Shown piece after piece: positions 5,458 through 56,108 of a stretch of 64,000 nucleotides of DNA; the stretch's first letter is position 1; each line of letters starts with the position of its first letter. A model generated the notes under the pieces. The model had not been told where the DNA came from and made no database searches. It saw only the letters and a program-made list of their open reading frames with translations. Origin of the DNA: Candidatus Pacearchaeota archaeon (lineage in GTDB: Archaea; Nanobdellota; Nanobdellia; UBA10117; JAFCGI01); assembly GCA_017608235.1 (NCBI GenBank), contig JAFCGI010000001.1, positions 1,423-65,422 on the forward strand, written 5' to 3'. Made by a program: the position numbers and the translations under genes.

Positions 5458-6147
5458 TTAAGTTCTTAATTCACAAATATCAAAATATGGTTTTAATAAT
5501 TTTATAAATTGTCTAAGTTCTTCTTCTGTGTATGCGCTTTCACTTCTATATTCTGGATTTAGTGTTTTAATTGATCTGAATTGCTGTAAATAGTATGCTT
5601 TTGATCCTTTAATCCATTCTGCAATAGATAATAAATCTTGTTTGGTTATTAGTTTTGGCAAAATTGTTGTTCTGAATTCATAATCTTTGCTTGAGTTTCG
5701 TATTATATCTATTGTTTTTTGTATATTTTCTACTTGAACTTTTGTGTTTGCTACTAAATCATATTTTTCTGGTGGTGCTTTTATGTCCATTGCTATATAA
5801 TCTACTAGATTTTCAGTTATCATAGTTTGAATTACCTTTGGATTTGTTCCATTTGTATCTAACTTAACTAAAAAACCCAGATCTTTGAGTTTGAATGCAA
5901 AATCTGTAAGATCTTTTTGAAGAGTTGGTTCTCCACCTGTGATGCAAACACCATCAATTAATTTTTTTCTTGAAATAAGATGGTTAAAAATTTCTTCTTC
6001 ATTAATTTTTTGTAGATCTCTATGATTTATTAATTCAGGATTATGGCAATAATGACATCTAAAATTACAATCTACTGTAAATATTACAGAAGCTATCTTT
6101 TTTGGATAGTCTATTAGAGATGTTTTTTGCCATCCCTTTATTATCAT
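5458..6147 (-). CDS. nrdG: Anaerobic ribonucleotide reductase activating protein (radical SAM)
   Basis: It has the radical-SAM motif CNFRCHYCHNPE and GVCITGGEPTLQ. It overlaps nrdD by 4 nt. Confidence 0.85.
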   Translation of the reverse strand: MIIKGWQKTSLIDYPKKIASVIFTVDCNFRCHYCHNPELINHRDLQKINEEEIFNHLISRKKLIDGVCITGGEPTLQKDLTDFAFKLKDLGFLVKLDTNGTNPKVIQTMITENLVDYIAMDIKAPPEKYDLVANTKVQVENIQKTIDIIRNSSKDYEFRTTILPKLITKQDLLSIAEWIKGSKAYYLQQFRSIKTLNPEYRSESAYTEEELRQFIKLLKPYFDICELRT

Positions 6148-8456
6148 TTTACACCAGAATATGCTATAAGCGTATTTGTTGCTGGCTTCTCTATAACCTT
6201 GTACTTATCTTTAATATTAATTGCTTTTACCTGACTATATGGTTTTCTGTCTTTGAATTCTTCCTTTTTCCCTTTATTCCAGCTTTTAACAGGTCTTAGA
6301 TAACCTACAACCCGGCTATAAATTTCTGTTTCTTCACCACAAGTAGGGCAGCTTTCTTTTTCTCCTCTAATATAGCCATGATTTTTACATACAGAGAATG
6401 TAGGAGTTATTGTATAATATGGTAATTTAAAGTTATATGCTATTTTTTTAACTAATTGCTTGCATGTTTCTGCATCTGTGATTCTTTCACCTAAAAAACC
6501 ATGCAATACTGTTCCACCAGTATATTTACATTGTAATTCATCTTGGTGTTCTAATGCTTCAAATATATCATCTGTATATCCTACTGGCAATAATGATGAA
6601 TTTGTATAATATGGTTCAACATCACCAGCAGTGATTATGTCTGGATATCTTGCTATGTCCATTCTTGCAAATCTATAGCTAGTACCTTCTGCAGGGGTTG
6701 CTTCTAAATTATAGATATTTTTTGTTTCCTCCTGAAAATTAGATATTTTATTTCTCATAAAACCTAGTACTTCCAAAGCAAACTGTCTACCATCTTTAGT
6801 AGATATGTCTTTTCCTAAAAAGTTTAGACAAGCTTCATTCATTCCGTTTATACCTATAGTAGAAAAATGATGGTTAAAGGTTCCGAGATATCGTTTTGTG
6901 AATGGGAGTAATCCATTATCTAGGTTTTTTGTTATTATTTTTCTTTTTACTTCTAATGATTCCTTAGCTATTTCCATAAAAAATGTTAATCTTTCAAAGA
7001 ATTCTTCTTTAGTCTCAGATAGATATCCAATTCTTGGAAGATTTATGGTTACTACTCCAATACTTCCTGTTGATTCTCCAGATCCAAATAGGCCACCTGT
7101 TTTTTTTCTTAATTCTCTTAAGTCTAATTGCAATCTGCAACACATAGATCTTACATCTGTTGGCTTAAGATCTGAATTTATAAAATTCTGGAAGTATGGA
7201 ATTCCATATTTTGCAGTCATCTCAAATAATAGATTTGAATTTTCTGAATCCCAATCAAATTCTCTTGTAACATTATATGTTGGAATTGGGAATGTAAATA
7301 ATCTACCTGAAGCATCTCCTTCTATCATGGTTTCTATGAATGCTTTATTTATCATGTCCATTTCTTTTTGACAGTCACCATATGTAAAGCTCTGTGTTTT
7401 TTTTCCAATGGTTGCTTTTTGATTTGCCATATCACTTGGAACTGTCCAATCAAAAGTTAAATTTAAGAATGGTGTTTGAGTTCCCCACCTACTTGGTGTT
7501 GCTATATTAAATAAGAATCTTTGCATTTGTTGTTTAACTTGCTTATAGGTTAGATTATCTTTTTTAATATATGGTGCTAAATATGTATCAAAAGATGATA
7601 GTGCTTGCGCTCCAGCCCATTCATTTTGCAGGGTTCCAATAAAATTAACTATTTGACCTACAATTGTATCTAAGTGTTTAGCTGGAGCGGTTTGTAGTTT
7701 TCCATAAATTCCGCCAAATCCTTCTGTAATTAGCTGTCTTAGACTCCAGCCAGCACAGTATCCAGAAAACATTGATAGATCATGAATATGTATATCTCCA
7801 TTTCTATGTGCTTGTGAAATTTTTTGAGAATATAGGTTTAACCAATAATTTGCAGTTATTTTTCCTGAAATGTAAAGAATTAATCCTCCAATTGAGAAAT
7901 CTACATTACTATTTTCATTAACTCTCCAGTCACTTCTTTGTAGATATTCTCCCATTATTTCGTCTATATCTACAAAAGTTTTTTCAAATTCTCTAACTCT
8001 TTTACGTTTTTCCCTGTATAGAATGAATGCTTTAGCTACTTGTGCATGTCCTTGTTCGATTAGAACTTTTTCAATAGCATCCTGAATTTGCTCTACATTA
8101 GGAACTTGTGTATTACTTGTCTCAAGTACCTCTACTACATTATTTGTGATTTCTTCTGCTTTTTTCTTGTCTTTTCCGCCTACAGCTTTTACAGCTTTGA
8201 AAATTGCAGCATATACTCTTTCTTTATCAAATAGAGCAATAGTTCCATCTCTTTTTCTGATTTGTTGTATTTTCAAGGGATGTTTTTCTTTGCTTAAATG
8301 TTCATATGTGGTGAATCTTTTATTACAACTTAAACACTCTCTTCTACGGCGTGAAGAACTTTGATTTTCTCTCTTATCTATAACTTTGGTTTTTTCTGAG
8401 GAACAAAATGGACATTTCATTTTTAGAGCACCCTTTCTATTTAGGTAAGTATACAC
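6144..8456 (-). CDS. nrdD: Anaerobic ribonucleoside-triphosphate reductase class III with an N-terminal ATP-cone
   Basis: It has an N-terminal Zn ribbon CPFCSS..CLSC and an ATP-cone (IRKRDGTIALFDKERVYAAIFKAV). The C-terminal glycyl-radical region is CPTCGEETEIYSRVVGYLRPV. Confidence 0.9.
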   Translation of the reverse strand: MYTYLNRKGALKMKCPFCSSEKTKVIDKRENQSSSRRRRECLSCNKRFTTYEHLSKEKHPLKIQQIRKRDGTIALFDKERVYAAIFKAVKAVGGKDKKKAEEITNNVVEVLETSNTQVPNVEQIQDAIEKVLIEQGHAQVAKAFILYREKRKRVREFEKTFVDIDEIMGEYLQRSDWRVNENSNVDFSIGGLILYISGKITANYWLNLYSQKISQAHRNGDIHIHDLSMFSGYCAGWSLRQLITEGFGGIYGKLQTAPAKHLDTIVGQIVNFIGTLQNEWAGAQALSSFDTYLAPYIKKDNLTYKQVKQQMQRFLFNIATPSRWGTQTPFLNLTFDWTVPSDMANQKATIGKKTQSFTYGDCQKEMDMINKAFIETMIEGDASGRLFTFPIPTYNVTREFDWDSENSNLLFEMTAKYGIPYFQNFINSDLKPTDVRSMCCRLQLDLRELRKKTGGLFGSGESTGSIGVVTINLPRIGYLSETKEEFFERLTFFMEIAKESLEVKRKIITKNLDNGLLPFTKRYLGTFNHHFSTIGINGMNEACLNFLGKDISTKDGRQFALEVLGFMRNKISNFQEETKNIYNLEATPAEGTSYRFARMDIARYPDIITAGDVEPYYTNSSLLPVGYTDDIFEALEHQDELQCKYTGGTVLHGFLGERITDAETCKQLVKKIAYNFKLPYYTITPTFSVCKNHGYIRGEKESCPTCGEETEIYSRVVGYLRPVKSWNKGKKEEFKDRKPYSQVKAINIKDKYKVIEKPATNTLIAYSGVK

Positions 8457-9027: not shown

Positions 9028-10190
9028 AAAAAATATATTTGGATAATGGTGCAACTACTGCTGTAGACAGGGAAGTTATAGAAGCTATGTTGCCTTTTTT
9101 CTCTGAGAAGTTTGGTAATGCATCTTCAAGCCATAGTTATGGACGAGAAGCTAAAAAAGCACTTGAGAATTCAAGGAATATTATTGCAAAAAGTATTGGT
9201 GCTAAACCAAATGAGATAATTTTTACTTCTGGTGGCACAGAAGCTAATAACTTTGTGATTAAAGGTTTAGCATTTTCAAATAAAGATAGAGGCAAGCATA
9301 TCATAACAACTAAAGTAGAACATGATTGTATTCTTAATGCTTGTAAATGGTTAGAAACTCAAGGGTTTAAAGTCACATATCTAGATGTAGATAAAGAAGG
9401 ATTTGTAAATCCTGAATCGTTAAATGATGCTATAACTTCTGAAACTATTTTAGTTTCGGTGATTCATGGAAATAATGAGATTGGAACTATTCAAGATTTA
9501 GAAAAATTAGGAAAAATTTGTGAAACACGAGGAGTTTATTTTCATACTGATGCTTGTCAAAGTTATACAAAAACAAAATTAGACGTTAACAAACAACATC
9601 TTGATTTAGTAACCTTAAATTCTCATAAAATCCATGGTCCAAAAGGAGTTGGTGCACTTTATATTAGAAAAGGCATAAAAATTACTCCTATATTACATGG
9701 TGGTGGGCAAGAATTTAATTTAAGATCTGGAACAGATAATGTTTCTGGGGTTGTAGGATTTGCAAAAGCAGTTCAACTTGCAATGAATCCTAAACATATT
9801 AAAAAAATGACTATGCTAAGAGATGATCTTATTGAAGGAATATTAAAAATTCCTGATGTAATATTAAATGGTGCTAATGGAGATAAAAGGTTATGTAACA
9901 ATGTAAATGTGTCTTTTAAATATGTTGAGGGAGAGGCTATAGGTGGATATCTTGATGCTGAAGGAATCAGCTCTTCGACAGGATCTGCATGTTCTTCACC
10001 AAAATTAGAACCTAGTCATGTTTTGCTAGCAATAGGATTGAGTCCTGAAGATGCACATGGTAGTTTAAGACTTACACTCAGCAGATTTACAACTAAAGAA
10101 GAGATTGATAAAGTATTAGATTTGCTTCCTAAAATAATTAAAAAACTAAGGAAGATGTCTCCTCTTATGAAGTTTATAAAAAAATTATAG
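9015..10190 (+). CDS. iscS: Cysteine desulfurase (IscS/NifS, PLP-dependent)
   Basis: It has YLDNGATT, the PLP-lysine motif SHKIHGPKGVGALY, and the active-site SSTGSACSS. An alternative start MKKIYL lies at 9024. Confidence 0.9.
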   Translation: MFKMKKIYLDNGATTAVDREVIEAMLPFFSEKFGNASSSHSYGREAKKALENSRNIIAKSIGAKPNEIIFTSGGTEANNFVIKGLAFSNKDRGKHIITTKVEHDCILNACKWLETQGFKVTYLDVDKEGFVNPESLNDAITSETILVSVIHGNNEIGTIQDLEKLGKICETRGVYFHTDACQSYTKTKLDVNKQHLDLVTLNSHKIHGPKGVGALYIRKGIKITPILHGGGQEFNLRSGTDNVSGVVGFAKAVQLAMNPKHIKKMTMLRDDLIEGILKIPDVILNGANGDKRLCNNVNVSFKYVEGEAIGGYLDAEGISSSTGSACSSPKLEPSHVLLAIGLSPEDAHGSLRLTLSRFTTKEEIDKVLDLLPKIIKKLRKMSPLMKFIKKL

Positions 10191-10198
10191 GTGGTATT

Positions 10199-10567
10199 AT
10201 GTATTCTGAAAAAGTAATAAAAGAATTTAAAAATCCTAAAAATATGGGTGAGATAAAAGATGCAGATGGAATAGGTAAAATAGGTAATCCTGTTTGCGGA
10301 GATGTTATGCATGTCTATATTAAAGTTAAAAACAATAAAATTACTGATATAAAGTTCAAAACTTTTGGTTGTGTTGCTGCAATTGCTACTTCATCTGTAA
10401 TGACTAAATTAGTTAAGGGTAAAAGTATTGAAAAAGCTTTAAAATTAAATAATAATAACATAGCAAAAGCTTTGGATGGTTTGCCACCTATGAAATTACA
10501 TTGTTCTAATTTGGCTGCTGAAGCATTACACAAAGCAATTGAAAATTACAAGAAAACTAAAAAATAA
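10199..10567 (+). CDS. iscU: Fe-S cluster assembly scaffold IscU/NifU
   Basis: It has the IscU motifs GNPVCGDVM, FGCVAAIATSS, and LHCSNLAAEALHKAI. Confidence 0.9.
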   Translation: MYSEKVIKEFKNPKNMGEIKDADGIGKIGNPVCGDVMHVYIKVKNNKITDIKFKTFGCVAAIATSSVMTKLVKGKSIEKALKLNNNNIAKALDGLPPMKLHCSNLAAEALHKAIENYKKTKK

Positions 10568-11414
10568 GATCTAATGATTTCTTAAAAACAATCATGAAGA
10601 AATTTTGTCTGAAATTTTTTCTCCAAGAAAAATTTTTGAGTGTGTATGAAGTTAATTCTTTAAATTCTTCTGATAGCTCTTTTGGTTCGTAACATTTTTT
10701 TAGATAATTTATAAGTTTCTTTGCTTTTGGTTTTCTTTGTACTTTTGTAAATGGAATTATTACTGATAAAAGTTCAAGCTGATAATTTATTGCATTTTCT
10801 ATTTGTTCAAGTGTTTGCTTTTGTAATTTTGGTTTAATGCATTTCTTTTTGCTAAAATATAAATTATAGTAATCTTCCAAGATATAATCTGTAAATCCTT
10901 TATTTATTAATTCTAGATTTGCATAGATATCTTTGAGAACATAATTTGTGCTTTCTCCAATATTAGAATAGAAATTTATTATATTCTGCTTTGGTTGTCC
11001 TATCTTAAATAGCTCTTTTTTAAACTTATTAAATGCAAATATTGCAGCTTTTCTTATTTTATTATCTAAACTTTTGTTTGTTTGAACTATATGCATTAAT
11101 TCGTGCAGGAGAACTCCAATTAGTGCTTTTTTATTTGTTTTAAGATAGTTATCAAATTTACTTATATGTATTATAACATGATTGTTTTTTTTATATGTTA
11201 AAGACATAGATGTGGCTTCTTCTTTACATAATTTTTTGAATTCTTTTGCAGATTCTCCCTTAAGAGTTCCAGATGTTACTGGGCAAAATTTAATATTATC
11301 AATAACAAAGATATTTAGTTTTATTTTTTTAGGAATTTTAAGCAGAGATGTTGCTTTTTTTACAGCAGAACCAACAAATTCTTCATTAAAATCTCCTCTT
11401 ATAGTTAAATTCAT
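10557..11414 (-). CDS. Hypothetical protein with an HExxH motif (possible zinc metallopeptidase)
   Basis: The sequence LLHELMHIV is present. I recognise no other family signature. Confidence 0.35.
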   Translation of the reverse strand: MNLTIRGDFNEEFVGSAVKKATSLLKIPKKIKLNIFVIDNIKFCPVTSGTLKGESAKEFKKLCKEEATSMSLTYKKNNHVIIHISKFDNYLKTNKKALIGVLLHELMHIVQTNKSLDNKIRKAAIFAFNKFKKELFKIGQPKQNIINFYSNIGESTNYVLKDIYANLELINKGFTDYILEDYYNLYFSKKKCIKPKLQKQTLEQIENAINYQLELLSVIIPFTKVQRKPKAKKLINYLKKCYEPKELSEEFKELTSYTLKNFSWRKNFRQNFFMIVFKKSLDLIF

Positions 11415-11445
11415 ATTAAAATAAAAGAAATCATGAAATAAAAAA

Positions 11446-12165
11446 TTATGCTTGTGTTTCAGATAATATATGTTCTATAAGTAACTCATATTCTTCTTTT
11501 TCTAATTCTGGGTCACCGTTTTCTCCATCATATTCGTGTCCTGAGCCTACTCTGAAATATTTACAGCCAAATACAAATGTAGGAATTGTTCCTTGCGGAT
11601 TAAATTCTTTATATATTGCTAGTTCTGTATCTGGTATTTCATCCTCAATATCATCAGTTAATTCATTATCATTTTCATCTAGCTGCCAATGATATACTTT
11701 TATATCTCCATTATCTATATATGGTTGAATTGCTTCATGGAATGGAGTCTTAACCCAGTTACAATGCATACACCATGTTGTTGAAAATAATCTAACTATT
11801 GGTTTTCCATCACTAGTTTTACAAATCTCTGCATCTGGAATTTCTAAGAAAGGATTTCCTTGTTCTGTAGATATTCCTTCTATATTTATTGGTACTGCTT
11901 CTGCTGTTGCATCCCCTGTAATTTCATTATCTTCAAGATTACCTGAAGGAGTAGTATCTTGATTTTGTGTTTCTTCTGATTTAGAAAAAACATCTATGCC
12001 TAATCCAAATCCGCTAGTTACCAACGATAATACTAATAAAATTCCTAGAATCACTGATATTATTCTCCATAGCTTAAATTTGTCTATCTCTATTTTTGTT
12101 GATGATTTATGTATTTCTGTGTTTTTCTCTGAAACTTCTCCTTCATCGTGTTTGTGTTCATCCAT
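11446..12165 (-). CDS. Membrane-anchored thioredoxin-fold thiol-disulfide oxidoreductase
   Basis: It has an N-terminal TM helix (WRIISVILGILLVLSLV) and a redox CxxC in the sequence TTWCMHCNW. Confidence 0.55.
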   Translation of the reverse strand: MDEHKHDEGEVSEKNTEIHKSSTKIEIDKFKLWRIISVILGILLVLSLVTSGFGLGIDVFSKSEETQNQDTTPSGNLEDNEITGDATAEAVPINIEGISTEQGNPFLEIPDAEICKTSDGKPIVRLFSTTWCMHCNWVKTPFHEAIQPYIDNGDIKVYHWQLDENDNELTDDIEDEIPDTELAIYKEFNPQGTIPTFVFGCKYFRVGSGHEYDGENGDPELEKEEYELLIEHILSETQA

Positions 12166-34397: not shown

Positions 34398-35252
34398 ATG
34401 AAGAAACTAAAGAAACCTAAAATTGAGTATAAATTTGGAAATGAATTATTTGAAATTATTTTAGCAGTACTTGTATTAGGTTTTTGCTTTAGTTTTAGAG
34501 ATTGGGGTTATGAGTTGTTTGATATTGGAATTGGGTTGTATAATTTATTTAAAAGCATAATTATTGTAGGGTTTTCTGTTGGTGTTCATGAAGTTGCGCA
34601 TAGATGGTTAGCTAAAAAATATTTTGCAAAAGTTAGATACAAGTTATGGAAAACAGGGATATTTGCTGCATTAATTCTTGTTTTTTTAACTAATGGTTAT
34701 ATAGTGTTTGCAGCTCCTGGTGTAGTAGCTATTAGTACAATATATTTATTTAGGCCTGGTGCTGCACTTCCAGGAGGATATCCTAAACATTTGGGTCCTT
34801 TTGATAGAGCAAAAATTGCTTTAATAGGTCCTATGAGTAACTTGGCATTAGCTTTTTTTGCTAAAGGTTTTTTTGAATTTTCTCCTTGGTTAATGAACAA
34901 GTTATTATTTGTAAACCTTTCTTTAGCATTTTTTAATATGTTTCCTTTCTTTATATTATTTCCTGTGCTATTTAGCAAAATATTTCCTCATAAAATTAGA
35001 AGATTTACATATAAGCATGATATTCCTTATTTAGAAGGCGAGCATATTTTATTTGGTTCATTAATAATGTGGGGATTTTCATTTATATTTTTGTGCTTTT
35101 CTATAGGATTTTTAATGTTTTTAAATGTAGGATTAGCACTTATACTTTCGATTATTAGCGCAAGTATTTTATTCTTATTTTATTGGTATTATATTCAAAT
35201 AGGTGGACCTAAAGGATTTAAGCCAAGTCCAGATTCTATTTGGTGGAAATAA
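34398..35252 (+). CDS. Membrane zinc metalloprotease of the site-2-protease (M50) family
   Basis: It has HEVAHRW within a TM helix and is multi-TM. Confidence 0.55.
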   Translation: MKKLKKPKIEYKFGNELFEIILAVLVLGFCFSFRDWGYELFDIGIGLYNLFKSIIIVGFSVGVHEVAHRWLAKKYFAKVRYKLWKTGIFAALILVFLTNGYIVFAAPGVVAISTIYLFRPGAALPGGYPKHLGPFDRAKIALIGPMSNLALAFFAKGFFEFSPWLMNKLLFVNLSLAFFNMFPFFILFPVLFSKIFPHKIRRFTYKHDIPYLEGEHILFGSLIMWGFSFIFLCFSIGFLMFLNVGLALILSIISASILFLFYWYYIQIGGPKGFKPSPDSIWWK

Positions 35253-36754
35253 ATAAAATGAAATTTCTAAAAGATAAACTAAATTTAAGACTATATCAAG
35301 AAACAATTTTTTCTTCTGCATCAAAAAAAAACTGTTTAGTTGTGTTACCTACAGGACTTGGCAAGACTATGATTGCTATTGCTTTAGCAGCATTAAGAGA
35401 AAATAAAGGAAAGATTTTAATGATGGCACCTACTAAGCCGCTGATAAATCAACATAGAAAAACTTTTTCTGAATATTTTACAAACATAGAAAAAATTAAT
35501 GTTATTTCTGGAGAGATTGCTCCAAAATTAAGAAAAGATATATGGAACAAATCTAAAATTGTGTTTGCCACACCCCAAACAATTAAAAAAGACTTAATTT
35601 ATAGTAGAATTTCTTTAGATGATGTTTCTTTAGTGGTATTTGATGAAGCTCATAGAGCTGTTGGAGATTATGCATATGTTTATATTGCTAGAAAATACAT
35701 AAATTCTGGAAAAAAACCTAGAATTTTAGGATTAACTGCTTCTCCAGGATCTGATAGACTTAAAATTAAAGAAGTTTGTTCAAATTTATTTATTGATATT
35801 ATAGAATCTAGAGATAGAGATCATAAAGAAGTTAGAGATTTTGTTAAAGCTGTAAAAATTAGTTATGAATTTATAGAATTGCCTAATGATATAAGAAATA
35901 TTTCTAAATTTTTAAATACTGCTGCATCTGGAAGAATTAATATTTTATATGATATGGGATTTATTAAAACAAAAAATATTTCTAAAAAATATTTATTAAG
36001 TTTTCAAAAATATTTGCTTAGCAAGTCTAAAAATTATTATAATTTTAGAGCTTTGTCCTTAATCTCTCAAATAATAAAAATAAAACATGCAATAGAGTTA
36101 TTAGAAGCAGAAAGCATTGAATCTTTTATTAAATACTTAAATAAAGTAGAATCACAAAAGAATAAAGCAGCAAACAGTGTTTGTTCTGATTTTGAAGTTA
36201 AAAGAGCTAAATTGCTTGGTTTAAAGTTTTTAGATAATAATATAGAACATCCAAAATTAGATAGCTTGTTGAAAGTTATTAAAAAACAAATCTCCAAGAA
36301 AAAAGATTCTAAGATTTTAGTGTTTACTGAATATAGAACAAATATTAATCCAATTATAAATAAATTATATGAGTCAAAAATATCTTGTAATAAATTTATT
36401 GGGCAATCTTCTAAGTTAGAAAAAGGAATGTCTCAGGATGATCAGATTAAAACTCTTAATAAATTTAAGAGAAATGAGTTTAATGTGTTGGTTGCTACTT
36501 CTGTTGCTGAGGAAGGCTTAGATATTCCTTCTGTAGATATGGTTATATTTTATTCTGTAGTACCTTCAGCTATAAGATCTATACAACGAAAAGGAAGAAC
36601 TGGACGGCATAATTATGGAAAAATAAGTATACTATTAACTAAAAATACAAAAGATGAGGCTTATTACTGGATAGCTCATAAAAAAGAAAAAAAAATGAAA
36701 TATATAATAGATAGTATTAGTTCAAACGAAGATCTTACAAAATTTATAAAATGA
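35240..36754 (+). CDS. hef: Hef-type SF2 helicase (the helicase portion of Hef/FANCM), a stand-alone gene
   Basis: It has the Q-motif LRLYQ, Walker A (PTGLGKT), the DEAH box (VFDEAHRAVGDYAY), and a helicase C-domain (QRKGRTGR). Confidence 0.8.
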   Translation: MVEINKMKFLKDKLNLRLYQETIFSSASKKNCLVVLPTGLGKTMIAIALAALRENKGKILMMAPTKPLINQHRKTFSEYFTNIEKINVISGEIAPKLRKDIWNKSKIVFATPQTIKKDLIYSRISLDDVSLVVFDEAHRAVGDYAYVYIARKYINSGKKPRILGLTASPGSDRLKIKEVCSNLFIDIIESRDRDHKEVRDFVKAVKISYEFIELPNDIRNISKFLNTAASGRINILYDMGFIKTKNISKKYLLSFQKYLLSKSKNYYNFRALSLISQIIKIKHAIELLEAESIESFIKYLNKVESQKNKAANSVCSDFEVKRAKLLGLKFLDNNIEHPKLDSLLKVIKKQISKKKDSKILVFTEYRTNINPIINKLYESKISCNKFIGQSSKLEKGMSQDDQIKTLNKFKRNEFNVLVATSVAEEGLDIPSVDMVIFYSVVPSAIRSIQRKGRTGRHNYGKISILLTKNTKDEAYYWIAHKKEKKMKYIIDSISSNEDLTKFIK

Positions 36755-37407
36755 TAAAAATAATTATTGATCATAGAGAAAAAAATGAAATTATTAATAT
36801 TTTAAAAAATTTAGAAAAGGGAGCTGAAATTGAAGTTAAAAATTTAAGTGTAGGAGATTTTATTTTAAGCAAGGATGTGGTTATTGAAAGGAAAACAATT
36901 AATGATTTTTTAAGTTCTTTAATAGATAAAAGATTATTTGAGCAAGCAAGGGAGCTAAAGCATAATTTTAAGAAACCATTATTTTTAATTGAGGGTAATT
37001 TAGAAGAAATTTATAATATTAGAGATATAAATGAAAATGCTATTAGAGCTGCAATGCTTTCTTTGATTTTAGATTTTGAAATTCCTTTTTTATTTTCAAC
37101 TAATATCTTGGATAGTGCTAAAATTTTGATAACTATTGCTAGAAGGGAGCAGATTCAAAAAAATAAAGAAATTAGTTTAAGAGGAAGTAAAATTGCATAT
37201 ACTATGCCTCAAATGCAGCAATATTTTGTTGAAGGGTTGCCTTTAGTAGGTCCTAATTTAGCTAAATTGCTTTTAAAAAAGTTTAAAACCCCTAAAAAAA
37301 TAGTAAATGCTAAACTTGAAAAGTTGAAAAAAGTTGAAAAAATTGGAGATAAAAAAGCAAAATTAATTAGAGATATATTAGATTTAGAATATAATGAAAA
37401 TAACTAA
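36751..37407 (+). CDS. ERCC4/XPF-type nuclease with a C-terminal HhH2 (the nuclease portion of Hef), a separate ORF
   Basis: The ERCC4 motif appears as VGDFIL...ERKTINDF. The C-terminal HhH reads VEGLPLVGPNLAKLLL. Its ATGA overlaps the helicase ORF stop. Confidence 0.8.
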   Translation: MIKIIIDHREKNEIINILKNLEKGAEIEVKNLSVGDFILSKDVVIERKTINDFLSSLIDKRLFEQARELKHNFKKPLFLIEGNLEEIYNIRDINENAIRAAMLSLILDFEIPFLFSTNILDSAKILITIARREQIQKNKEISLRGSKIAYTMPQMQQYFVEGLPLVGPNLAKLLLKKFKTPKKIVNAKLEKLKKVEKIGDKKAKLIRDILDLEYNENN

Positions 37408-37726: not shown

Positions 37727-38104
37727 CTCTCACACCTTTATTTCTTATGGAGTTAATTTATTATTAATTTTAGTTTTATTTAACACACCTTTATTTCTTA
37801 TGGAAATATATAATTTATATTATAATATCATTTTTTGAAGTTTCCATAGGAAATTTATTTTTATTAATTTTAATTATATTTTAATTATATTATATAATAT
37901 ATATTATTATTTGCAATATAGTAAATAATTATTTTATTATTTAAAAATATTTAATTATATTTTGAATATTCTATTATTTTTTGAAAGAGTTTTTTCCAAT
38001 GGAAATGTAGGTCAGAGGGTCTTTTTAAATAATTATTTTAATTTTTTAGTAATTATATTCTAGAGTATATAAATTATTAATAAACCTTTGTTTCTTATGC
38101 ACTT
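37727..38104. promoter_or_regulatory. Probable chromosomal replication origin (oriC): an AT-rich unwinding region flanked by ORB-like and repeated elements, immediately upstream of orc1/cdc6
   Basis: It is a 378-bp non-coding stretch. The 37860..37990 portion is >90% A+T. It carries an ORB-like element at 37994..38021 and a dyad TTTCCATAGGAAA at 37841..37853. Three copies of ACCTTT(A/G)TTTCTTATG lie at 37731, 37784, and 38083. The adjacent orc1-dp1-dp2 arrangement matches the arrangement known from Pyrococcus. Confidence 0.65.
37994..38021 (+). promoter_or_regulatory. Origin recognition box (ORB)-like element
   Basis: TTCCAATGGAAATGTAGGTCAGAGGGTC matches the ORB consensus TTCCAnTGGAAA followed by a G-string. 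This is the established Orc1 binding site. Confidence 0.6.
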
Positions 38105-38110
38105 TTGGAT

Positions 38111-39316
38111 ATGAGACAGAGAGCATTAAATGATTATTTTGAGAGTTTCTTAGAAAAGGAAACTATATTTGAAGATAAGAAAGTTCTACAACAAAAATAT
38201 ATACCTAATTTAATATTACATAGGGAACAACAAGTTGATATTTTGGCACATATTTTGGCACCAGTTTTAAGAAAAGACAAACCATCTAATGTGTTTTTGT
38301 ATGGTAAAACCGGAACTGGAAAAACATTATGTAGTAATTATATATGTGATAAATTAAAAGAAGTAGCAGATAAGAAAAATATTCCTTTAAAAATTATATA
38401 TGTTAATTGCAAATTGAAAAAAGTTTGTGATACAGAATATAGAGTTGTTTCTTATCTTGCTAGAAGTATGGGTGTTAATGTACCTAGCACTGGTTTGCCA
38501 ACAGATGAAATATATAATTTGTTTTTGAGGGAAGTTGAGAAAGAAGAAAGTATAATTTTATTAATTTTAGATGAAATTGATCATTTAGTTAATAAAGCTG
38601 GTGATGAAATTTTATATAATCTTACAAGAATTAATTCAGAATTATCAAAATCTGAGTTATCAGTTATTGGAATTTCAAATGATGTTAGATTTATAGAAAA
38701 TATAGATCCAAGAGTTAAAAGTTCTTTAAATGAGGAAGAAGTTATTTTTCCACCATATAATGCAATTGAATTAAAAGATATTTTAAGAAAAAGAGCAGAA
38801 TTTGCTTTTAAGAAGGGAAGTATAAAAGATGGTGTTCTAGAAAAATGTGCTGCTTATGCAGCAAGGGAACATGGTGATGCTAGAAGGGCTTTGGATTTAT
38901 TAAGGGTTGCTGGTGAGATTTCAGAAAGATTAGGAGCTAGTTTTGTAGATGCAACACATATTGACTTAGCAGAAGAAAAAATAGAAAAAAATAGAATTTT
39001 AGAGATTGTTAGAACGCAACCAAGACAATCTCAGGCAGTATTATATTCTATTTTGTTATTATTAAAAAATAAAAGTGAAAGTGTTGAGACTGGTGAAATA
39101 TTTGAAAGATATAAAGAGGTTTGCATACAAGCAGGTCAAAATATATTAACACAAAGAAGGATTTCTGATTTAATCTCAGAGTTAGATATGCTTGGATTGA
39201 TAAATGCTAAAGTTATTAGCAAAGGAAGATATGGTAGGACAAGAGATATTTATGTGGCAATACCAGATTCTATAATTGATAAAGTTAGAGATAGTTTGAT
39301 AAGTGATCTAACTTAA
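38111..39316 (+). CDS. orc1: Orc1/Cdc6 replication initiator
   Basis: It has the AAA+ Walker A (LYGKTGTGKT), Walker B (ILDEIDHL), and a C-terminal winged helix. I set the start at the ATG at 38111, because the ORF-track start is a TTG. A TATA-like sequence TATATAAAT sits about 40 nt upstream. Confidence 0.95.
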   Translation: MRQRALNDYFESFLEKETIFEDKKVLQQKYIPNLILHREQQVDILAHILAPVLRKDKPSNVFLYGKTGTGKTLCSNYICDKLKEVADKKNIPLKIIYVNCKLKKVCDTEYRVVSYLARSMGVNVPSTGLPTDEIYNLFLREVEKEESIILLILDEIDHLVNKAGDEILYNLTRINSELSKSELSVIGISNDVRFIENIDPRVKSSLNEEEVIFPPYNAIELKDILRKRAEFAFKKGSIKDGVLEKCAAYAAREHGDARRALDLLRVAGEISERLGASFVDATHIDLAEEKIEKNRILEIVRTQPRQSQAVLYSILLLLKNKSESVETGEIFERYKEVCIQAGQNILTQRRISDLISELDMLGLINAKVISKGRYGRTRDIYVAIPDSIIDKVRDSLISDLT

Positions 39317-51577: not shown

Positions 51578-52228
51578 ATGCCGATTGTTAGTGAAAAAAT
51601 AGCAGAATATACTTATGATACTTATAATGGTAGGTTTATTGTATTGGAAGGCATTAATGGGTGTGGCAAAGGTACACAAGCAGACATGCTTTCTGAATTT
51701 TTAATTAAAAGAGAATATTCTGTTTTACAAACAGAAGAACCTTGGAGAAAAGGTTTAGGACTAGTAATTAAGAAAACTATAGATAAAGATCATAATTATA
51801 AGAATCCAAGATATGATGCTTTGCTTTTTACTGCAGACAGAATAAGGCACATGGATGAAGAAATACTACCTGCTTTAGAAGCAGGAAAAACAGTTATATG
51901 TGACAGATTCTATCATAGCACTTTAGCATATCAAACTACTGATGGATTAGATATTGATTGGCTAAAAAGTTTAAATGATAATATTATGATTCCAGATTTA
52001 ACTTTGATAATTGATGTTCCAGCAGATGTTGCTGTTGAAAGATTGCGAAAAAGAGACAGAATTGAAGTTGCCAGATTTGAAGAATATGATTTCTTAGTAG
52101 CATTAAGAGAAACATATCTTGGTTTGGTAGATTATCTGAGAGATGAGAATGTTCAAGTGATTGATGGTAGTAAGAGCATTACAAAAACATATGATAGTAT
52201 TATTTCTAAAGTGGAGGAGATATTATGA
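51578..52228 (+). CDS. tmk: Thymidylate kinase
   Basis: It has a P-loop (LEGINGCGKGTQ) and the DRFYHSTLAYQ motif. The lid reads RLRKRDR. Confidence 0.85.
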   Translation: MPIVSEKIAEYTYDTYNGRFIVLEGINGCGKGTQADMLSEFLIKREYSVLQTEEPWRKGLGLVIKKTIDKDHNYKNPRYDALLFTADRIRHMDEEILPALEAGKTVICDRFYHSTLAYQTTDGLDIDWLKSLNDNIMIPDLTLIIDVPADVAVERLRKRDRIEVARFEEYDFLVALRETYLGLVDYLRDENVQVIDGSKSITKTYDSIISKVEEIL

Positions 52229-52788
52229 GTAATTATAAGTTAGTTGGATTAACTGGGCCAATAGCTTCTGGTAAAGGTGTATTAGGAGATTATTTAGTTG
52301 ATGAGTTAGGATGGAATTATATTTCTTTATCTGGGCTTGTAAGAGAGGAAGCTAGACGCAGAAATATAGCAGAAGAAAGAGAGAATTTGATTAATATTGG
52401 AAATTCTTTAAGAGCAGAAAGAGGTCCAGGTGTTCTAGGAGAACTAGCATATGAAAAAATGTTAGCTAAAGAATATCAGAATGTAGTAGTAGATGGTATA
52501 AGAAATCCTGGAGAAATTCATGTTTTAAGAAATCAATCTAATTATAAGGTTTTGATAATTGGAGTAAATGCAGAAGCAGAAATAAGATACAAGCGAGCTT
52601 TAGAAAGGGCAAGAGATTCAGATCCAATAACTTTAGATCATATTAGAAAGATAGATAAAAAAGATAGAGCTATTGGGATTGAAGGTTGTTTAGAGATAGC
52701 AGATATATTGATTTATAATCATGAACATATAAGTATGGAAGAACTTGTATCTAATTTTAAAGATATCTTAGCAGAGAAAGGATTTTGA
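52225..52788 (+). CDS. P-loop nucleotide/nucleoside kinase-like protein (dephospho-CoA kinase / UPF0200-like)
   Basis: Walker A is VGLTGPIASGKG. The fold is NMP-kinase-like. It overlaps tmk by 4 nt. Confidence 0.5.
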   Translation: MSNYKLVGLTGPIASGKGVLGDYLVDELGWNYISLSGLVREEARRRNIAEERENLINIGNSLRAERGPGVLGELAYEKMLAKEYQNVVVDGIRNPGEIHVLRNQSNYKVLIIGVNAEAEIRYKRALERARDSDPITLDHIRKIDKKDRAIGIEGCLEIADILIYNHEHISMEELVSNFKDILAEKGF

Positions 52789-52849: not shown

Positions 52850-54496
52850 ATGAAATCTTCTAAAGAAATCTTAGATAGTGCAGAATCTTTTTTGGAGACT
52901 GCTGATAGTTATGTTATTTTAGATAAGCCAAGAGTTAATTTACTTAGTTATGATCCATCCATACAAAGTTTATCTTTAAATTATATTAGAAGTAAGTATC
53001 ATTTCTTTTTGAAAACTGTGGAACGGTCTAGAGAACAGCAACTAGATGAAAGTTTATTTAATCAATTTTTAGCAGATATTGCAGTATCAAGAGGAGATCT
53101 TGCTGTATTTGATAGAGGCCATATTCATTTTAAACTTAATTGTACTAGAGTTGGTACGAATGATATATTAAGGCATTATAGTATGAGATTTTTTCAGACA
53201 GGTCAAAGAAAGCAAATAGATTTGAATGTTCTTGATTCTGAAGATATATCTCAAAGTATTAGATATTTTTTGCCGCCTGAATGGGTTAAAGCTAGAGATC
53301 TAGCAGAGGAATTTAATTCTGCTATGAGTTATGTTGCACATTTAGTTAAACATGCAATAGATTTAGGAATGCCATCAGATCAAGCAAGATATATTATTCC
53401 TAATGCAGCAACTACTACTTTGGAAATGAGTGGTAGTTTGAGAAGCTTTTTTTCTTATGTTGGTTTAAGAGCTTGTGAACAAGCGCAGTTTGAGAATCAA
53501 TTTTTATCAGAGAAAGTGGCTAAGAAGCTCAAGGAAATATTGCCAGACCTTACCCAAAAACTTGGACCTAGATGCGTGTATGATCCTAGATGCAGAGAAG
53601 GAAAAAATTCTTGCGGTAAAATAAAAGAGAAAAGAGATTTGTTTGTTGGAGATGGTTCTGGTTTAGAGTATGTTATTAAGAGAGCTCAGATGCAAATAGA
53701 TAGTATTGATGAAATAGAATTTAATAATCAAGGATTTTTAAGCAATCTTTCTGATGCTTATAACGAGTATGTAAGTCTTGAGGAATCTAATGAGTTGCCA
53801 TTAGTTGAACTTGAAGCAAGATTTAATTCTGGAATATCTAATTTAGAAGAGTTTACAGCGCAGCTTGCGAAAAATACATTTAAAAGGTATACTGGAAAGA
53901 CTTTTGCATCTGATGATAAATTAACTATTGAACAAGTAGCAAATATTTGTAGAAATATAGTTAAAGCAGGACATTATGGAGCATTAGGACATCAGCATCT
54001 TAGCTATGATACTAAGATTTCTAGAGTTATGCTCCAAAAATTTGCAAGGCATCATTCTTTAGTTTTGATGGCATCTAGCCAACATCATAGTATTCATGCT
54101 AATTTTGAATATATTATGCCACCAATGTGGGAAAAATTAGGATTAGGAACAGAATTCCATACTATTGTTAGGTATTTAAATAATCTTTATACTAGAGCTA
54201 TGGATGCAGGAATTCCAAGAGATCAAGCAAGATATTGTCTGCCTACTTGTGCTACAACAAATCTTATGATCTCAGCATCTCCAAGATCTTTATTTTCTTT
54301 AGCAGCTCAGAGGACTTGTCCAAGTAATAGTTGGGAGGAAAGAGAAATAGTTTCTATGATAGTAGATGATGCAAGAGAAAGATATTCAAATCTTTTTTAT
54401 TATCTAGGACCTAAGTGTTTACTAAAACTTTGTGGGGCTAAGTGTGAATATGAGGATGAGGTTAGGAATAAGTACTTAGTGGATGGCGATGAGTGA
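52850..54496 (+). CDS. Tandem-duplicated ThyX-fold protein (two fused flavin-dependent thymidylate synthase-like domains). The RHR/SxRY motifs are degenerate in both halves.
   Basis: Half 1 reads GMPSDQARYIIPNAATTTLEMSGSLRSFFSYVGLRACEQAQFENQ and half 2 reads GIPRDQARYCLPTCATTNLMISASPRSLFSLAAQRTC. Both align to the ThyX core ([45 protein letters not shown]). The RHR-like positions read RHYSMRFFQTGQRKQ in half 1 and RHHSLVLMASSQHHS in half 2. Confidence 0.65.
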   Translation: MKSSKEILDSAESFLETADSYVILDKPRVNLLSYDPSIQSLSLNYIRSKYHFFLKTVERSREQQLDESLFNQFLADIAVSRGDLAVFDRGHIHFKLNCTRVGTNDILRHYSMRFFQTGQRKQIDLNVLDSEDISQSIRYFLPPEWVKARDLAEEFNSAMSYVAHLVKHAIDLGMPSDQARYIIPNAATTTLEMSGSLRSFFSYVGLRACEQAQFENQFLSEKVAKKLKEILPDLTQKLGPRCVYDPRCREGKNSCGKIKEKRDLFVGDGSGLEYVIKRAQMQIDSIDEIEFNNQGFLSNLSDAYNEYVSLEESNELPLVELEARFNSGISNLEEFTAQLAKNTFKRYTGKTFASDDKLTIEQVANICRNIVKAGHYGALGHQHLSYDTKISRVMLQKFARHHSLVLMASSQHHSIHANFEYIMPPMWEKLGLGTEFHTIVRYLNNLYTRAMDAGIPRDQARYCLPTCATTNLMISASPRSLFSLAAQRTCPSNSWEEREIVSMIVDDARERYSNLFYYLGPKCLLKLCGAKCEYEDEVRNKYLVDGDE

Positions 54497-54956
54497 TTAC
54501 AGCAAGATAAGAAATTTGTTAGAAGAAGCATTATCTATGTCTAGATGTCTTAAACATCCTGTTGCAGCAGTGATTGAAACTCCAACAGGAGAATATGTTA
54601 TTGGATATAATGGTCCTAGTGATAGGATTGGAGATCATTTGGAGTGTGATAGAAAGGGACTTCATAGTGGAGTTCATATGGAAAGATGTCCTGGGACTCA
54701 TGCAGAAATAAGAGCAATTGCTAATGCTGCTAGAGAAGGGATACTTATAGATAGATCTACATTGTATTTGAGCAGTTGGTTTCCATGTGATAATTGTGCA
54801 AAAAACATGATTGAAGCAGGCATAATAAAATTTGTAACTCCAGATCCTATAAAGTATGAACCAAATAGTGCTTATAATTTTGAGATGGCTGAAAGATTAA
54901 TGAGAGATTCTGGAATAGAAATTATTGTGAATGAAGATATTAGGCCTCGAATTTGA
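54483..54956 (+). CDS. dCMP deaminase (cytidine/deoxycytidylate deaminase zinc-binding family)
   Basis: It has HAEIRAI and PCDNCA zinc ligands. Confidence 0.8.
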   Translation: MAMSDYSKIRNLLEEALSMSRCLKHPVAAVIETPTGEYVIGYNGPSDRIGDHLECDRKGLHSGVHMERCPGTHAEIRAIANAAREGILIDRSTLYLSSWFPCDNCAKNMIEAGIIKFVTPDPIKYEPNSAYNFEMAERLMRDSGIEIIVNEDIRPRI

Positions 54957-55491
54957 ATTTTTTTATTTCTTCATAGATTGGACCTTTTCCAGTTAGGGTG
55001 CTTTTGAACAAACTAATTTTATTAGCTGTGAAAGATCCAAAGTTTATGGATTGGTTTATAGGTTGTTTAATTAGTTCAAGGAGTTTTTGTTTTTCATTTA
55101 CAGCTTTGACTCTTGCTAAGGTAATGTGTGCATGAAACTTATGATCTTCTTTTTTGAATCCTAGAGGTTCAAGCGATGTTTGAATTTTATTATATAATTC
55201 TTGGAGCTCTGGAGCATATGCTCCAGCCCAAATCACTCTAATATAATTTTCTGAAGGAAATATGCCTAGCTTTTTGATTTGAATATTGAATGGTTTGATG
55301 TCCTTTGAGATTTTTAACAATTCTTTTTCAATTTCAGCAATGTTTCCTATGGAACCTAAAAATTTAAGGGATATATGTAGGTTATTTTTTGCAACAAAAT
55401 TCCCTTTAATTAGTGGTTCTAGCTTAGATTGTAGTTCTGCTAGTTTGTCCTTTATTTCCTGTGGAAGTTCTATTGCTATGAAAGATCTCAT
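54940..55491 (-). CDS. thpR: RNA 2',3'-cyclic phosphodiesterase / 2'-5' RNA ligase (2H family, LigT/ThpR)
   Basis: It has two H-x-(T/S)-x motifs (HISLKF and HAHITLAR) and is about 183 aa. Confidence 0.8.
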   Translation of the reverse strand: MRSFIAIELPQEIKDKLAELQSKLEPLIKGNFVAKNNLHISLKFLGSIGNIAEIEKELLKISKDIKPFNIQIKKLGIFPSENYIRVIWAGAYAPELQELYNKIQTSLEPLGFKKEDHKFHAHITLARVKAVNEKQKLLELIKQPINQSINFGSFTANKISLFKSTLTGKGPIYEEIKKFKFEA

Positions 55492-55553: not shown

Positions 55554-56108
55554 ATGATAATTGGACTTGTAGGAATGCCTGCTTCAGGAAAAAGTACAGC
55601 TGCAGAAAGATTTGAAGAGCACAAGATAAAAAGAATTTATCTTGGAGATTTTATTTGGAAATTTCTTAAGAAGAAAGGCATAAAGAGATCCCAAGATACT
55701 GGGATGATGGCTGGCTTGGCTTTATGGGCAAGTTATGATGATATTCCTATTATGCAATGGGCTGAGAAGCAAATGAAGAAATATAAGAAGCAAGATTTTT
55801 TTATTTTAGATTCCCTAAGAACTGAAACTGAGCATGAGTTTTTGAAGATGAAGCATGATAATTATTTTTTAGTGGCTGTGGTTACTAATTCAGATATAAG
55901 ATTTCAAAGAGAGAAGAAGAGATCTAGATTTAGAGAGAAAATTAATTATGAGGATTTCAGAAGGCGTGATAAAGAAGAGCTTAGGATGGGTATTGGAAAT
56001 CTAATAGCAAGAGCAGATTTCTATATTGATGCTAATAATTCTATTTCTGATGTAAATAAACAGGTTGACGAAATAGTTAAAAAACTAATCCCAGAGCCTG
56101 AAAAATAG
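55554..56108 (+). CDS. P-loop nucleotide kinase-like protein (paralog of 52225..52788)
   Basis: Walker A is GLVGMPASGKST. Its length and layout are similar to the upstream paralog. Confidence 0.5.
   Translation: MIIGLVGMPASGKSTAAERFEEHKIKRIYLGDFIWKFLKKKGIKRSQDTGMMAGLALWASYDDIPIMQWAEKQMKKYKKQDFFILDSLRTETEHEFLKMKHDNYFLVAVVTNSDIRFQREKKRSRFREKINYEDFRRRDKEELRMGIGNLIARADFYIDANNSISDVNKQVDEIVKKLIPEPEK

Follow-up and report, generated by a model that had tools for sequence, protein, structure and literature searches.

A divergent tandem ThyX from a DPANN archaeon, probably a thymidylate synthase with non-equivalent active sites and with catalytic residues replaced in both halves

The present study concerns a stretch of 64,000 nucleotides from Candidatus Pacearchaeota archaeon (contig JAFCGI010000001.1, positions 1,423 to 65,422), referred to below as the window, and in it one gene whose product carries two domains of the flavin-dependent thymidylate synthase ThyX in a single chain of 548 amino acids (aa). 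We consider it probable that this gene encodes a working housekeeping flavin-dependent thymidylate synthase of a DPANN archaeon, converting deoxyuridine monophosphate to deoxythymidine monophosphate (dUMP to dTMP) as a dimer of tandem repeats in which the loops of the second domain would be the catalytic ones. The tandem fusion itself is not new; what is distinctive, as far as the sequences tell, is the replacement of conserved residues of catalysis and cofactor binding in both halves. The gene and the parts of its product are listed below with their positions in the window, the two ThyX domains being delimited by PF02511, by hhalign to TM0449 of Thermotoga maritima and by the column table:

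52850..54496, + strand: tandem ThyX gene, ATG start, 548 aa; two Thy1/ThyX domains with a helical linker of ~55 residues between them
52940..53545, + strand: ThyX domain 1, aa 31-232
53171..53215, + strand: domain-1 signature loop RHYSMRFFQTGQRKQ, aa 108-122; family consensus RHxS..F.Q.GQxKQ
53474..53614, + strand: domain-1 four-Cys signature, C209 (LRAC), C242, C248 and C255 (GPRCVYDPRCREGKNSC)
53624..53809, + strand: inter-domain linker, ~aa 259-320; three helices predicted in the model, between the PF02511 matches
53861..54376, + strand: ThyX domain 2, aa 338-509
54047..54091, + strand: domain-2 signature loop RHHSLVLMASSQHHS, aa 400-414; Ser88 kept, Arg90 replaced by His412 and Tyr91 by His413
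54317..54445, + strand: domain-2 four-Cys signature, C490 (QRTC), C523, C528 and C532 (GPKCLLKLCGAKC)

The fusion of two ThyX-like domains had been claimed in an earlier reading of the letters alone (hereafter the sequence-only reading), with a hidden Markov model search of each half against PF02511 named as the check. In the Pfam profile search (gathering score 24.8, profile of 191 positions), the whole protein obtained 162.5 bits (E 1.3e-47) in two stretches, and the N-terminal half (aa 1-274) and the C-terminal half (aa 275-548) taken alone obtained 81.4 bits (E 9.8e-23) and 85.4 bits (E 5.8e-24), respectively, the match of each half covering the profile almost end to end; both halves being significant, the domain assignment stands. 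The conserved core described in the same reading is also present in both halves, in the form of G.P...AR and RS..F...LR/QR. The fold was addressed with an AlphaFold2 model of the monomer, for which a 7-sequence family alignment served as the input and which reached a mean predicted local distance difference test (pLDDT) of 78.5 and a predicted template modelling score (pTM) of 0.79. When this model was compared with the PDB by Foldseek, the 50 best matches were all ThyX chains (probability 1.00), originating from T. maritima, Mycobacterium tuberculosis (Mtb), PBCV-1 and T. thermophilus, those of Mtb and T. maritima being at the top, with a TM-score of ~0.75 normalised to the ThyX chain; the sequence identity between the window protein and the solved ThyX structures is 15-20%. 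The pTM value suggests a defined packing of the two halves in the model. It should be pointed out that a mis-fusion by frameshift or assembly can be ruled out, since nine independent full-length orthologues (537-577 aa) are all single open reading frames (ORFs); the 260-aa protein P0011 is a truncated copy of the 577-aa protein P0168, not a split gene.

Concerning the functionally important residues, the key positions were numbered according to T. maritima TM0449 (identical to PDB 1kq4/1o26) within a 172-sequence domain alignment, the residues being counted over nine family members per domain, with 109 single-domain ThyX homologues as the comparison set. They are occupied as follows:

His53: domain 1, D 9/9; domain 2, H 9/9
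Mtb Arg87 equivalent: domain 1, R 7/9; domain 2, R 9/9
Gln75: domain 1, D 9/9; domain 2, K 8/9
Arg78: domain 1, R 9/9; domain 2, R 9/9
His79: domain 1, H 9/9; domain 2, H 9/9
Arg80: domain 1, variable; domain 2, variable
Ser88: domain 1, G 9/9; domain 2, S 9/9
Arg90: domain 1, variable (T/S/R); domain 2, H 9/9
Tyr91: domain 1, K 9/9; domain 2, H 9/9
Arg147: domain 1, K 8/9 and R 1/9; domain 2, R 9/9
Arg165: domain 1, R 6/9 and G 3/9; domain 2, R 9/9
Arg174: domain 1, R 9/9; domain 2, R 9/9
Glu182: domain 1, E 9/9; domain 2, E 8/9

In the window protein, domain 1 retains R100, R108, H109, R179 (K in most relatives), R207 and E215, with D83 at the position of His53, and domain 2 retains H375 (His53), R392, R400, H401, S410, R461 (Arg147), R479 (Arg165), R488 (Arg174) and E496; with His53 and Arg165 also retained, domain 2 stands closer to the canonical enzyme than domain 1. 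The loop of domain 1 reads G-Q-x-K at the positions 88-91, compared with S-x-R-Y in canonical ThyX, and G118, Q119 and K121 are each found in 9/9 members of the family, Q122 in 7/9; the pLDDT falls below 50 at aa 111-123 of the model, as expected of a mobile substrate loop. In the loop of domain 2, proposed here to be the catalytic one, S410, His412 and His413 are invariant in the family. Among the single-domain homologues, a histidine is found at position 90 in 11/109 and at position 91 in 6/109. The altered RHR and SxRY positions reported by the sequence-only reading were recovered, both quoted loop strings being present and the canonical signature occurring in neither half; as for GQRKQ of domain 1, the string exists, but its R is not conserved, being R, S or T in the relatives. 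Since the members of the family share only 34-55% identity with each other, the invariance of the replaced residues indicates that these have been selected (purifying selection) and have not decayed.

In canonical ThyX, each active site combines three roles that come from three different subunits (PMC6514825 section 3.1): role A comprises the RHR motif, which contacts the phosphates, ribityl and isoalloxazine of flavin adenine dinucleotide (FAD), and Arg174 (Mtb Arg199); role B comprises Ser/Thr55 (Mtb Ser71) and Arg165 (Mtb Arg190); and role C comprises Mtb Arg87 and the Ser88-x-Arg90-Tyr91 loop. The proposed general acid is Tyr91, polarised by Arg90 (PMC8316439, PMC11940539). From the observed fold, residue conservation and synteny, we infer the oligomer, the active loops, the chemistry and the substrate of the tandem protein in the following way. 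Two tandem chains would together form a body of four domains, equivalent to that which four identical subunits make up in canonical ThyX. Role A could be supplied by either domain (R108/H109/R207 or R400/H401/R488), role B would be intact in domain 2 only (H375, R479), and a recognisable catalytic loop for role C would be offered by domain 2 only (S410-Q-H412-H413). As roles B and C are kept only by domain 2, two catalytic sites per dimer, both using the domain-2 loop, are proposed, this predicted assignment of loops to sites following from sequence logic. In these sites, His412 and His413 would replace the general-acid pair Arg90/Tyr91 and help water to leave the flavin carbinolamine, and the two sites with the domain-1 loop (G118-Q119-x-K121) would be divergent, being either inactive or regulatory, or binding the reductant or the one-carbon (C1) donor. 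The dUMP would be supplied by the dCMP deaminase encoded next to the gene, ThyX and the deaminase being presumably co-translated from their overlapping reading frames, and the dTMP would be taken to dTDP by Tmk. The protein thus most likely serves as the thymidylate synthase of this organism, its sites being non-equivalent and pseudo-heterodimeric.

The family of the window protein is a divergent, rare and Woesearchaeota-restricted ThyX lineage. A word-indexed search of 5.8 billion proteins yielded 7 members (46-55% identity, 537-560 aa), and an exhaustive HMMER scan of 1.84 billion cluster representatives yielded 3588 ThyX-like proteins, only 4 of which belong to the family (E 1e-75 or better), the next one, at E 1e-33, being an ordinary ThyX. 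The 577-aa member P0168 originates from metagenome-assembled genomes (MAGs) of Candidatus Woesearchaeota and is found on 16 contigs (at 10001-11734 in the loci L006 and L007); among these MAGs, isolate SI037S2_bin39 represents its species in GTDB. The protein is named 'thymidylate synthase (FAD)' by JGI, as are other relatives of the family. A scan of genome contigs with the family alignment gave no match and a second one only the MAG behind L007, and a scan of metagenome contigs gave only 3 distant single-domain loci. In the IMG/VR viral contigs, no relative of the family was found; with this absence and the conserved core chromosomal block, an origin in phage or defence nucleotide modification was rejected.

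The family can be compared with canonical ThyX, represented by T. maritima TM0449 (PDB 1o26) and the Mtb enzyme (PDB 2af6/3gwc), with which it has in common the fold, PF02511 and, in both halves, Arg78, His79, Arg147 (Lys in domain 1), Arg174, Glu182 and the Mtb Arg87 equivalent. Canonical ThyX consists of four chains of 220-250 aa, whereas the window protein has two domains per 548-aa chain, is devoid of RHRxxSxxxxSxR, has Arg80, Gln75, Arg90 and Tyr91 replaced and possesses an additional four-Cys signature.

The sequence-only reading regarded the tandem fusion as unusual, which holds only in part: at least 22 other two-domain ThyX proteins were seen among the inspected representatives within the best 150 of the 3588, those designated here as type A being annotated as ordinary ThyX, but all of these proteins are only distant relatives of the window family. 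They comprise 18 proteins of type A (434-503 aa), e.g. from Clostridium sp. (MDR2043163.1), Candidatus Aenigmarchaeota (HDD46252.1) and Zixibacteria (OQX89327.1), with P0014, P0026, P0027, P0033 and P0034 as further examples and FAD-dependent thymidylate synthase as the source annotation, and 4 metagenomic proteins of type B (421-446 aa; P0037, P0042, P0140 and P0141). Type A resembles the window family in its two fused ThyX domains, in the four-Cys signature and in the non-equivalent halves, which imply a dimer whose sites are not alike; S88, R90, Y91, R147, H53 and R165 are retained in its N-domain, where R78, H79 and R174 are lost, and its C-domain retains RHR and R174 but has lost the loop and R147. 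Type B also has two ThyX-derived domains per chain, the truncated N-domain keeping SQRY and R147, and the C-domain RRHR, R174, H53 and R165. In both types there is one complete canonical set of residues per chain, and therefore two live and two dead sites per dimer are implied. In contrast, both halves of the window family keep R78, H79, R174 and R/K147, and neither has S-x-R-Y; moreover, the more canonical half is the C-terminal one, the reverse being true for type A. The accessible literature was found to contain no description of tandem ThyX (types A and B included) or of the window family. The ThyX of Chlamydia trachomatis (CT632), a biochemically characterised protein of ~529 aa with a duplicated ThyX domain, would be an active tandem ThyX; it was absent from the best 150 matches of the representative search.

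Among the single-domain proteins, the Cys-type ThyX (P0017, P0020 and P0022, but also P0013 and many more) has the same LRxC...GPxCx5-6CxEGxxxC as the window family and differs from the halves of the latter in being a single domain with the complete canonical RHRxxSxxxxSQRY. The loop SGSQQYQNHGNFSY of P0019 parallels ASSQHHSIHANFEY of domain 2 in both length and pattern, P0019 being the best match of domain 2 outside the family (92 bits). It belongs to a set of SSQHYQ/SQQYQ single-domain variants (P0019, P0039, P0056 and P0091) with Arg90 changed to His or Gln, and with Arg80 and Tyr91 kept. Further variants of this kind are P0054, P0064, P0071, P0084, P0098, P0101, P0104, P0136, P0143 and P0155, all metagenomic, and the Cys signature of the variants has CxQG in place of CPEG. 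A tblastn search of phage genomes with the SQHYQ-type variant P0091 gave only matches at the level of ordinary ThyX (≤35% identity).

The four cysteines of each half are invariant in the 7-sequence family alignment; in P0010, an outlier of the family, the cysteines of domain 2 are no longer present, and in the model the region of the domain-1 cysteines (aa 242-258) has pLDDT <50. As a trait specific to the family they had to be rejected, since the same LRxC...GPxC...C...C is shared by most of the closest single-domain ThyX proteins, whose motifs are canonical, the Cys of the TM0449-176 column being present in 105/109 single-domain homologues, and LRxC...GPxCx(4-6)CxEGxxxC also occurs in the C-domains of the type A and type B tandem proteins; the signatures are found in both halves of the window family and only in the C-domain of type A. 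In the comparison with the PDB, the signature was found in no solved ThyX structure, because the alignments end just ahead of GPxC. A structural or redox metal site (Zn or Fe-S) at the signature would be a guess, although a reasonable one. With regard to the large Cys-type ThyX subfamily as a whole, the putative Zn or Fe-S site at the C-terminal end of the domain appears uncharacterised.

As for the origin of the fusion, the two halves aligned to each other in a profile-profile comparison by hhalign with 27% identity (probability 99.8%, E 1e-27), which had first been read as a much closer relationship between the halves than with any other protein. This has been softened by phmmer and blastp, which gave 70-94 bits for the halves against each other and a roughly equal 75-110 bits against the nearest single-domain Cys-type ThyX; the halves are much further from those of types A and B than from Cys-type ThyX. 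In a neighbour-joining tree, the nine first and the nine second domains form one exclusive clade, within which each half is monophyletic and which is located apart from the type A and type B halves. The two halves also share derived characters, namely the loss of Arg80 and Gln75, a Ser at position 81, a PPxW motif and QA(K/R)Y in place of the DAR(F/Y) of other ThyX. From these sequence characters, the fusion is likely to go back to an old duplication that took place independently of types A and B, long-branch attraction being possible in the tree. Taking types A and B and the window family together, tandem ThyX with differentiated half-sites appears to have arisen several times.

The gene is located in a cluster of nucleotide-related genes, the members of which are the following:

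51578..52228, + strand: tmk (dTMP kinase), TIGR00041 155.4 bits (cutoff 83), PF02223 2.1e-42
52225..52788, + strand: first UPF0200/SSO1041-type P-loop kinase, PDB 3lw7/3h0k E ~3e-15, AAA_17 and PRK08356 matches
54483..54956, + strand: dCMP/cytidine deaminase-fold zinc enzyme, PF00383 1e-12, HAE and PCxxC motifs
54940..55491, - strand: LigT-like 2H phosphoesterase (2',5'-RNA-ligase-like), PF02834 1.9e-31, between the deaminase and the second kinase
55554..56108, + strand: second UPF0200/SSO1041-type P-loop kinase, PDB 3h0k/3lw7, 24% identical to the first kinase

The tmk gene, with a TATA-like TTTATATA box ~25 nt upstream, is the first of the co-directional cluster; the first kinase gene overlaps its stop by 4 nt, and the start of the deaminase gene overlaps the stop of ThyX by 14 nt, making translational coupling of these two likely. 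The two small kinases are members of the archaeal UPF0200/SSO1041 'AdkA-like' family (PDB 3h0k and 3lw7, E ~1e-15). The linkage of the tandem ThyX, deaminase and kinase genes recurs in six other contig contexts. In L002, the P0005 contig and L006-L008, genes for a dCMP deaminase and for a UPF0200-type kinase come after the tandem ThyX; UPF0200-type kinases flank it in L001 and L009, and the second kinase is syntenic in L001, L002, L006-L009 and the P0005 contig. In addition, L006-L008 have a gene for a dCTP deaminase/dUTPase ~2 kb upstream of the tandem ThyX. The LigT-like gene, which has no evident functional link to ThyX, occupies the same place in L001, L002 and L009, and a wider recurring block comprises TctA, an OB-fold protein, the tandem ThyX, LigT and a PRC-barrel protein. 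The coherent dCMP-to-dTDP cluster seen by the sequence-only reading is thus upheld in its gene order and conserved neighbourhood, but the two kinases, whose UPF0200/SSO1041 family has no assigned substrate, have a putative place in the route. The conserved synteny suggests a nucleotide-kinase role for this uncharacterised family.

It was also observed that the kinases and the deaminase give weak partial matches (~38 bits, cutoff 400) to NF041025, the model of the anti-phage dCTP deaminase, its N-terminal kinase-like part being matched by the UPF0200 kinases and its C-terminal deaminase part by the dCMP deaminase; judging from these matches, a housekeeping archaeal kinase/deaminase pair may be related to parts of that defence enzyme.

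The window has a GC content of ~30% and is archaeal, as would be expected of a Woesearchaeota-like DPANN archaeon; it represents core chromosome, encoding in addition NrdD with its activase, PolB, Cdc48, RadA, topoisomerase I, LonB, Hef, Orc1/Cdc6, both PolD subunits and phosphoribosyl pyrophosphate synthetase. The tandem ThyX locus is a vertically inherited housekeeping block, not a mobile or defence island.

Taken as a whole, the ThyX sequence and fold, the conserved framework residues and the linkage to tmk and the deaminase make a thymidylate synthase the answer that we favour with somewhat better than even confidence. There is, however, a series of observations that weigh against it. The whole protein obtains 112.4 bits with TIGR02170, the NCBIfam equivalog model of FAD-dependent thymidylate synthase, and passes its cutoff of 87.9 only because the scores of the two domains sum, the halves taken singly remaining below it with 59.5 and 58.5 bits. 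The signature RHRxxSxxxxSxR[YF] has no match in either half of any of the 9/9 family members; Arg80 and Gln75, found in 108/109 and 103/109 single-domain homologues, are replaced in both halves, as are Arg90 and Tyr91, and the combination of His90 with His91 was seen in no homologue outside the tandem family in the compared set. Ser88 and Tyr91 have been called strictly conserved and critical, the S88A, R90A and Y91A variants of T. maritima ThyX being strongly impaired (PMC8316439, PMC11940539). Finally, P0168 is a 'hypothetical protein' for NCBI, and no folate or C1 genes are visible within the 64-kb window.

A rival explanation, raised already by the sequence-only reading, is a neofunctionalised enzyme of the ThyX fold, which would have kept the flavin and a C1 donor and would act on another pyrimidine nucleotide (dCMP, UMP), yield another product or use another C1 or electron donor. 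Such an enzyme would fit the replacement in both halves of the residues at positions 75, 80, 90 and 91, which contact or activate dUMP or FAD, by residues counted as invariant, as well as the long isolated branch, with E falling from 1e-75 to 1e-33 at the family edge, the sub-cutoff equivalog scores of the halves and the adjacent UPF0200 kinases of unassigned substrate. DPANN genomes are, furthermore, metabolically reduced, folate genes being missing from the window, and T. maritima ThyX can use free formaldehyde as the C1 source (PMC8316439). We regard it as unlikely, however, since Arg174, credited with the activation of dUMP, is invariant in both halves and the phosphate-binding arginines are also kept; ordinary dTMP synthesis is what agrees best with the close and conserved association with the dCMP deaminase and tmk genes; the vertically inherited core block and the lack of viral-contig relatives differ from what is known of nucleotide-hypermodification systems; and no ThyA or second ThyX was found by tblastn (with E. 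coli ThyA, TM0449 and single-domain ThyX as queries) in the genome fragments covered, namely the 64-kb window and related loci of ~130 kb in total, so that no other candidate for the thymidylate synthase is at hand there.

The distribution of activity between the sites could also differ from that proposed above, in that all four sites of the dimer would be active and the G-Q-x-K-Q loop of domain 1 would be a second workable catalytic loop. The invariance of its residues G118, Q119 and K121 equals that of the domain-2 loop, Q122 coming close to it, and both domains keep R78, H79, R174 and R/K147, unlike the other tandem types, in which complementary loss marks the dead half-sites. Domain 1, on the other hand, has Gly for Ser88 in 9/9 members, Asp for His53 and variable residues at the positions 165 (R6/G3) and 90, so that, of the residues used for catalysis and FAD contact in canonical sites, most are missing from sites that depend on its loop and on its contribution as the second subunit, which leaves four active sites rather improbable. 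That the protein could be a catalytically dead ThyX relic with a structural or regulatory role (e.g. nucleotide sensing), with thymidylate salvaged from a host, might be thought of in view of the 'strictly conserved' Tyr91 and Arg90 missing from both halves and of the common host dependence of DPANN archaea. The strong conservation of the arginines contacting the substrate phosphate and the flavin and of Arg174 speaks against a relic, as do the operon-like coupling to dCMP deaminase and tmk and the little purpose that a dedicated dCMP deaminase would have without a thymidylate synthase consuming its dUMP, so this explanation appears highly improbable.

The favoured thymidylate synthase may be taken a step further, although only as a tentative and rather doubtful idea, to a DPANN-specific enzyme that manages without Arg90/Tyr91, Arg80 and Gln75, has a His-His general acid in only two of its four sites, and possibly employs another form of the flavin, another electron donor (perhaps the putative four-Cys metal site) or another C1 donor (a non-folate carrier or free formaldehyde), the sites of the domain-1 type having gained a new regulatory or cofactor function. 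An unusual flavin, electron or C1 donor, if true, would suit folate-poor, anaerobic and host-dependent archaea.

Several other features of the window deserve mention. At 37730-38105, three copies of the 21-nt repeat ACCTTTATTTCTTATGGAGTT (at 37734, 37787 and 38084) are situated around an AT-rich stretch (GC ~0.22) directly upstream of the Orc1/Cdc6 gene (38105-39316) and the PolD genes; from its sequence, this region looks like a replication origin with boxes resembling origin recognition boxes. A Hef-like helicase (35240-36754, 504 aa) and an ERCC4/helix-hairpin-helix nuclease (36751-37407, 218 aa) are encoded by separate ORFs overlapping by 4 nt, whereas in the Woesearchaeota loci L006 and L007 the Hef helicase and the ERCC4/helix-hairpin-helix domains are in one protein of at least 728 aa, so that in the window either the gene has truly been split or a frameshift separates the two ORFs. 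An intein, which carries a LAGLIDADG homing-endonuclease domain, is inserted in a thioredoxin-reductase-like pyridine-nucleotide disulfide oxidoreductase (1577-3682, - strand). The anaerobic ribonucleotide reductase NrdD (6144-8456, - strand) possesses an N-terminal NrdR-type zinc ribbon and an ATP-cone, and its gene adjoins that of a radical S-adenosylmethionine activase (5458-6147, - strand), the neighbourhood of the two indicating an anaerobic lifestyle.

ThyX is both an antibiotic target and a mechanistic curiosity, in that the methylene is relayed by the flavin without any enzyme nucleophile, and the current models of its mechanism lean on Ser88, Arg90 and Tyr91. An essential enzyme with His/His for Arg90/Tyr91 and without Arg80 and Gln75, but with Arg174 and the phosphate clamps retained, would, if true, amount to a natural mutagenesis experiment, and the window family, if functional, would show which of the residues are indispensable and whether histidine can serve as the general acid. 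As P0168 is called a 'hypothetical protein' by NCBI, pathway reconstructions of Woesearchaeota may wrongly score thymidylate synthesis as missing; the family is thus relevant to both the enzymology of ThyX and the metabolic reconstruction of DPANN archaea.

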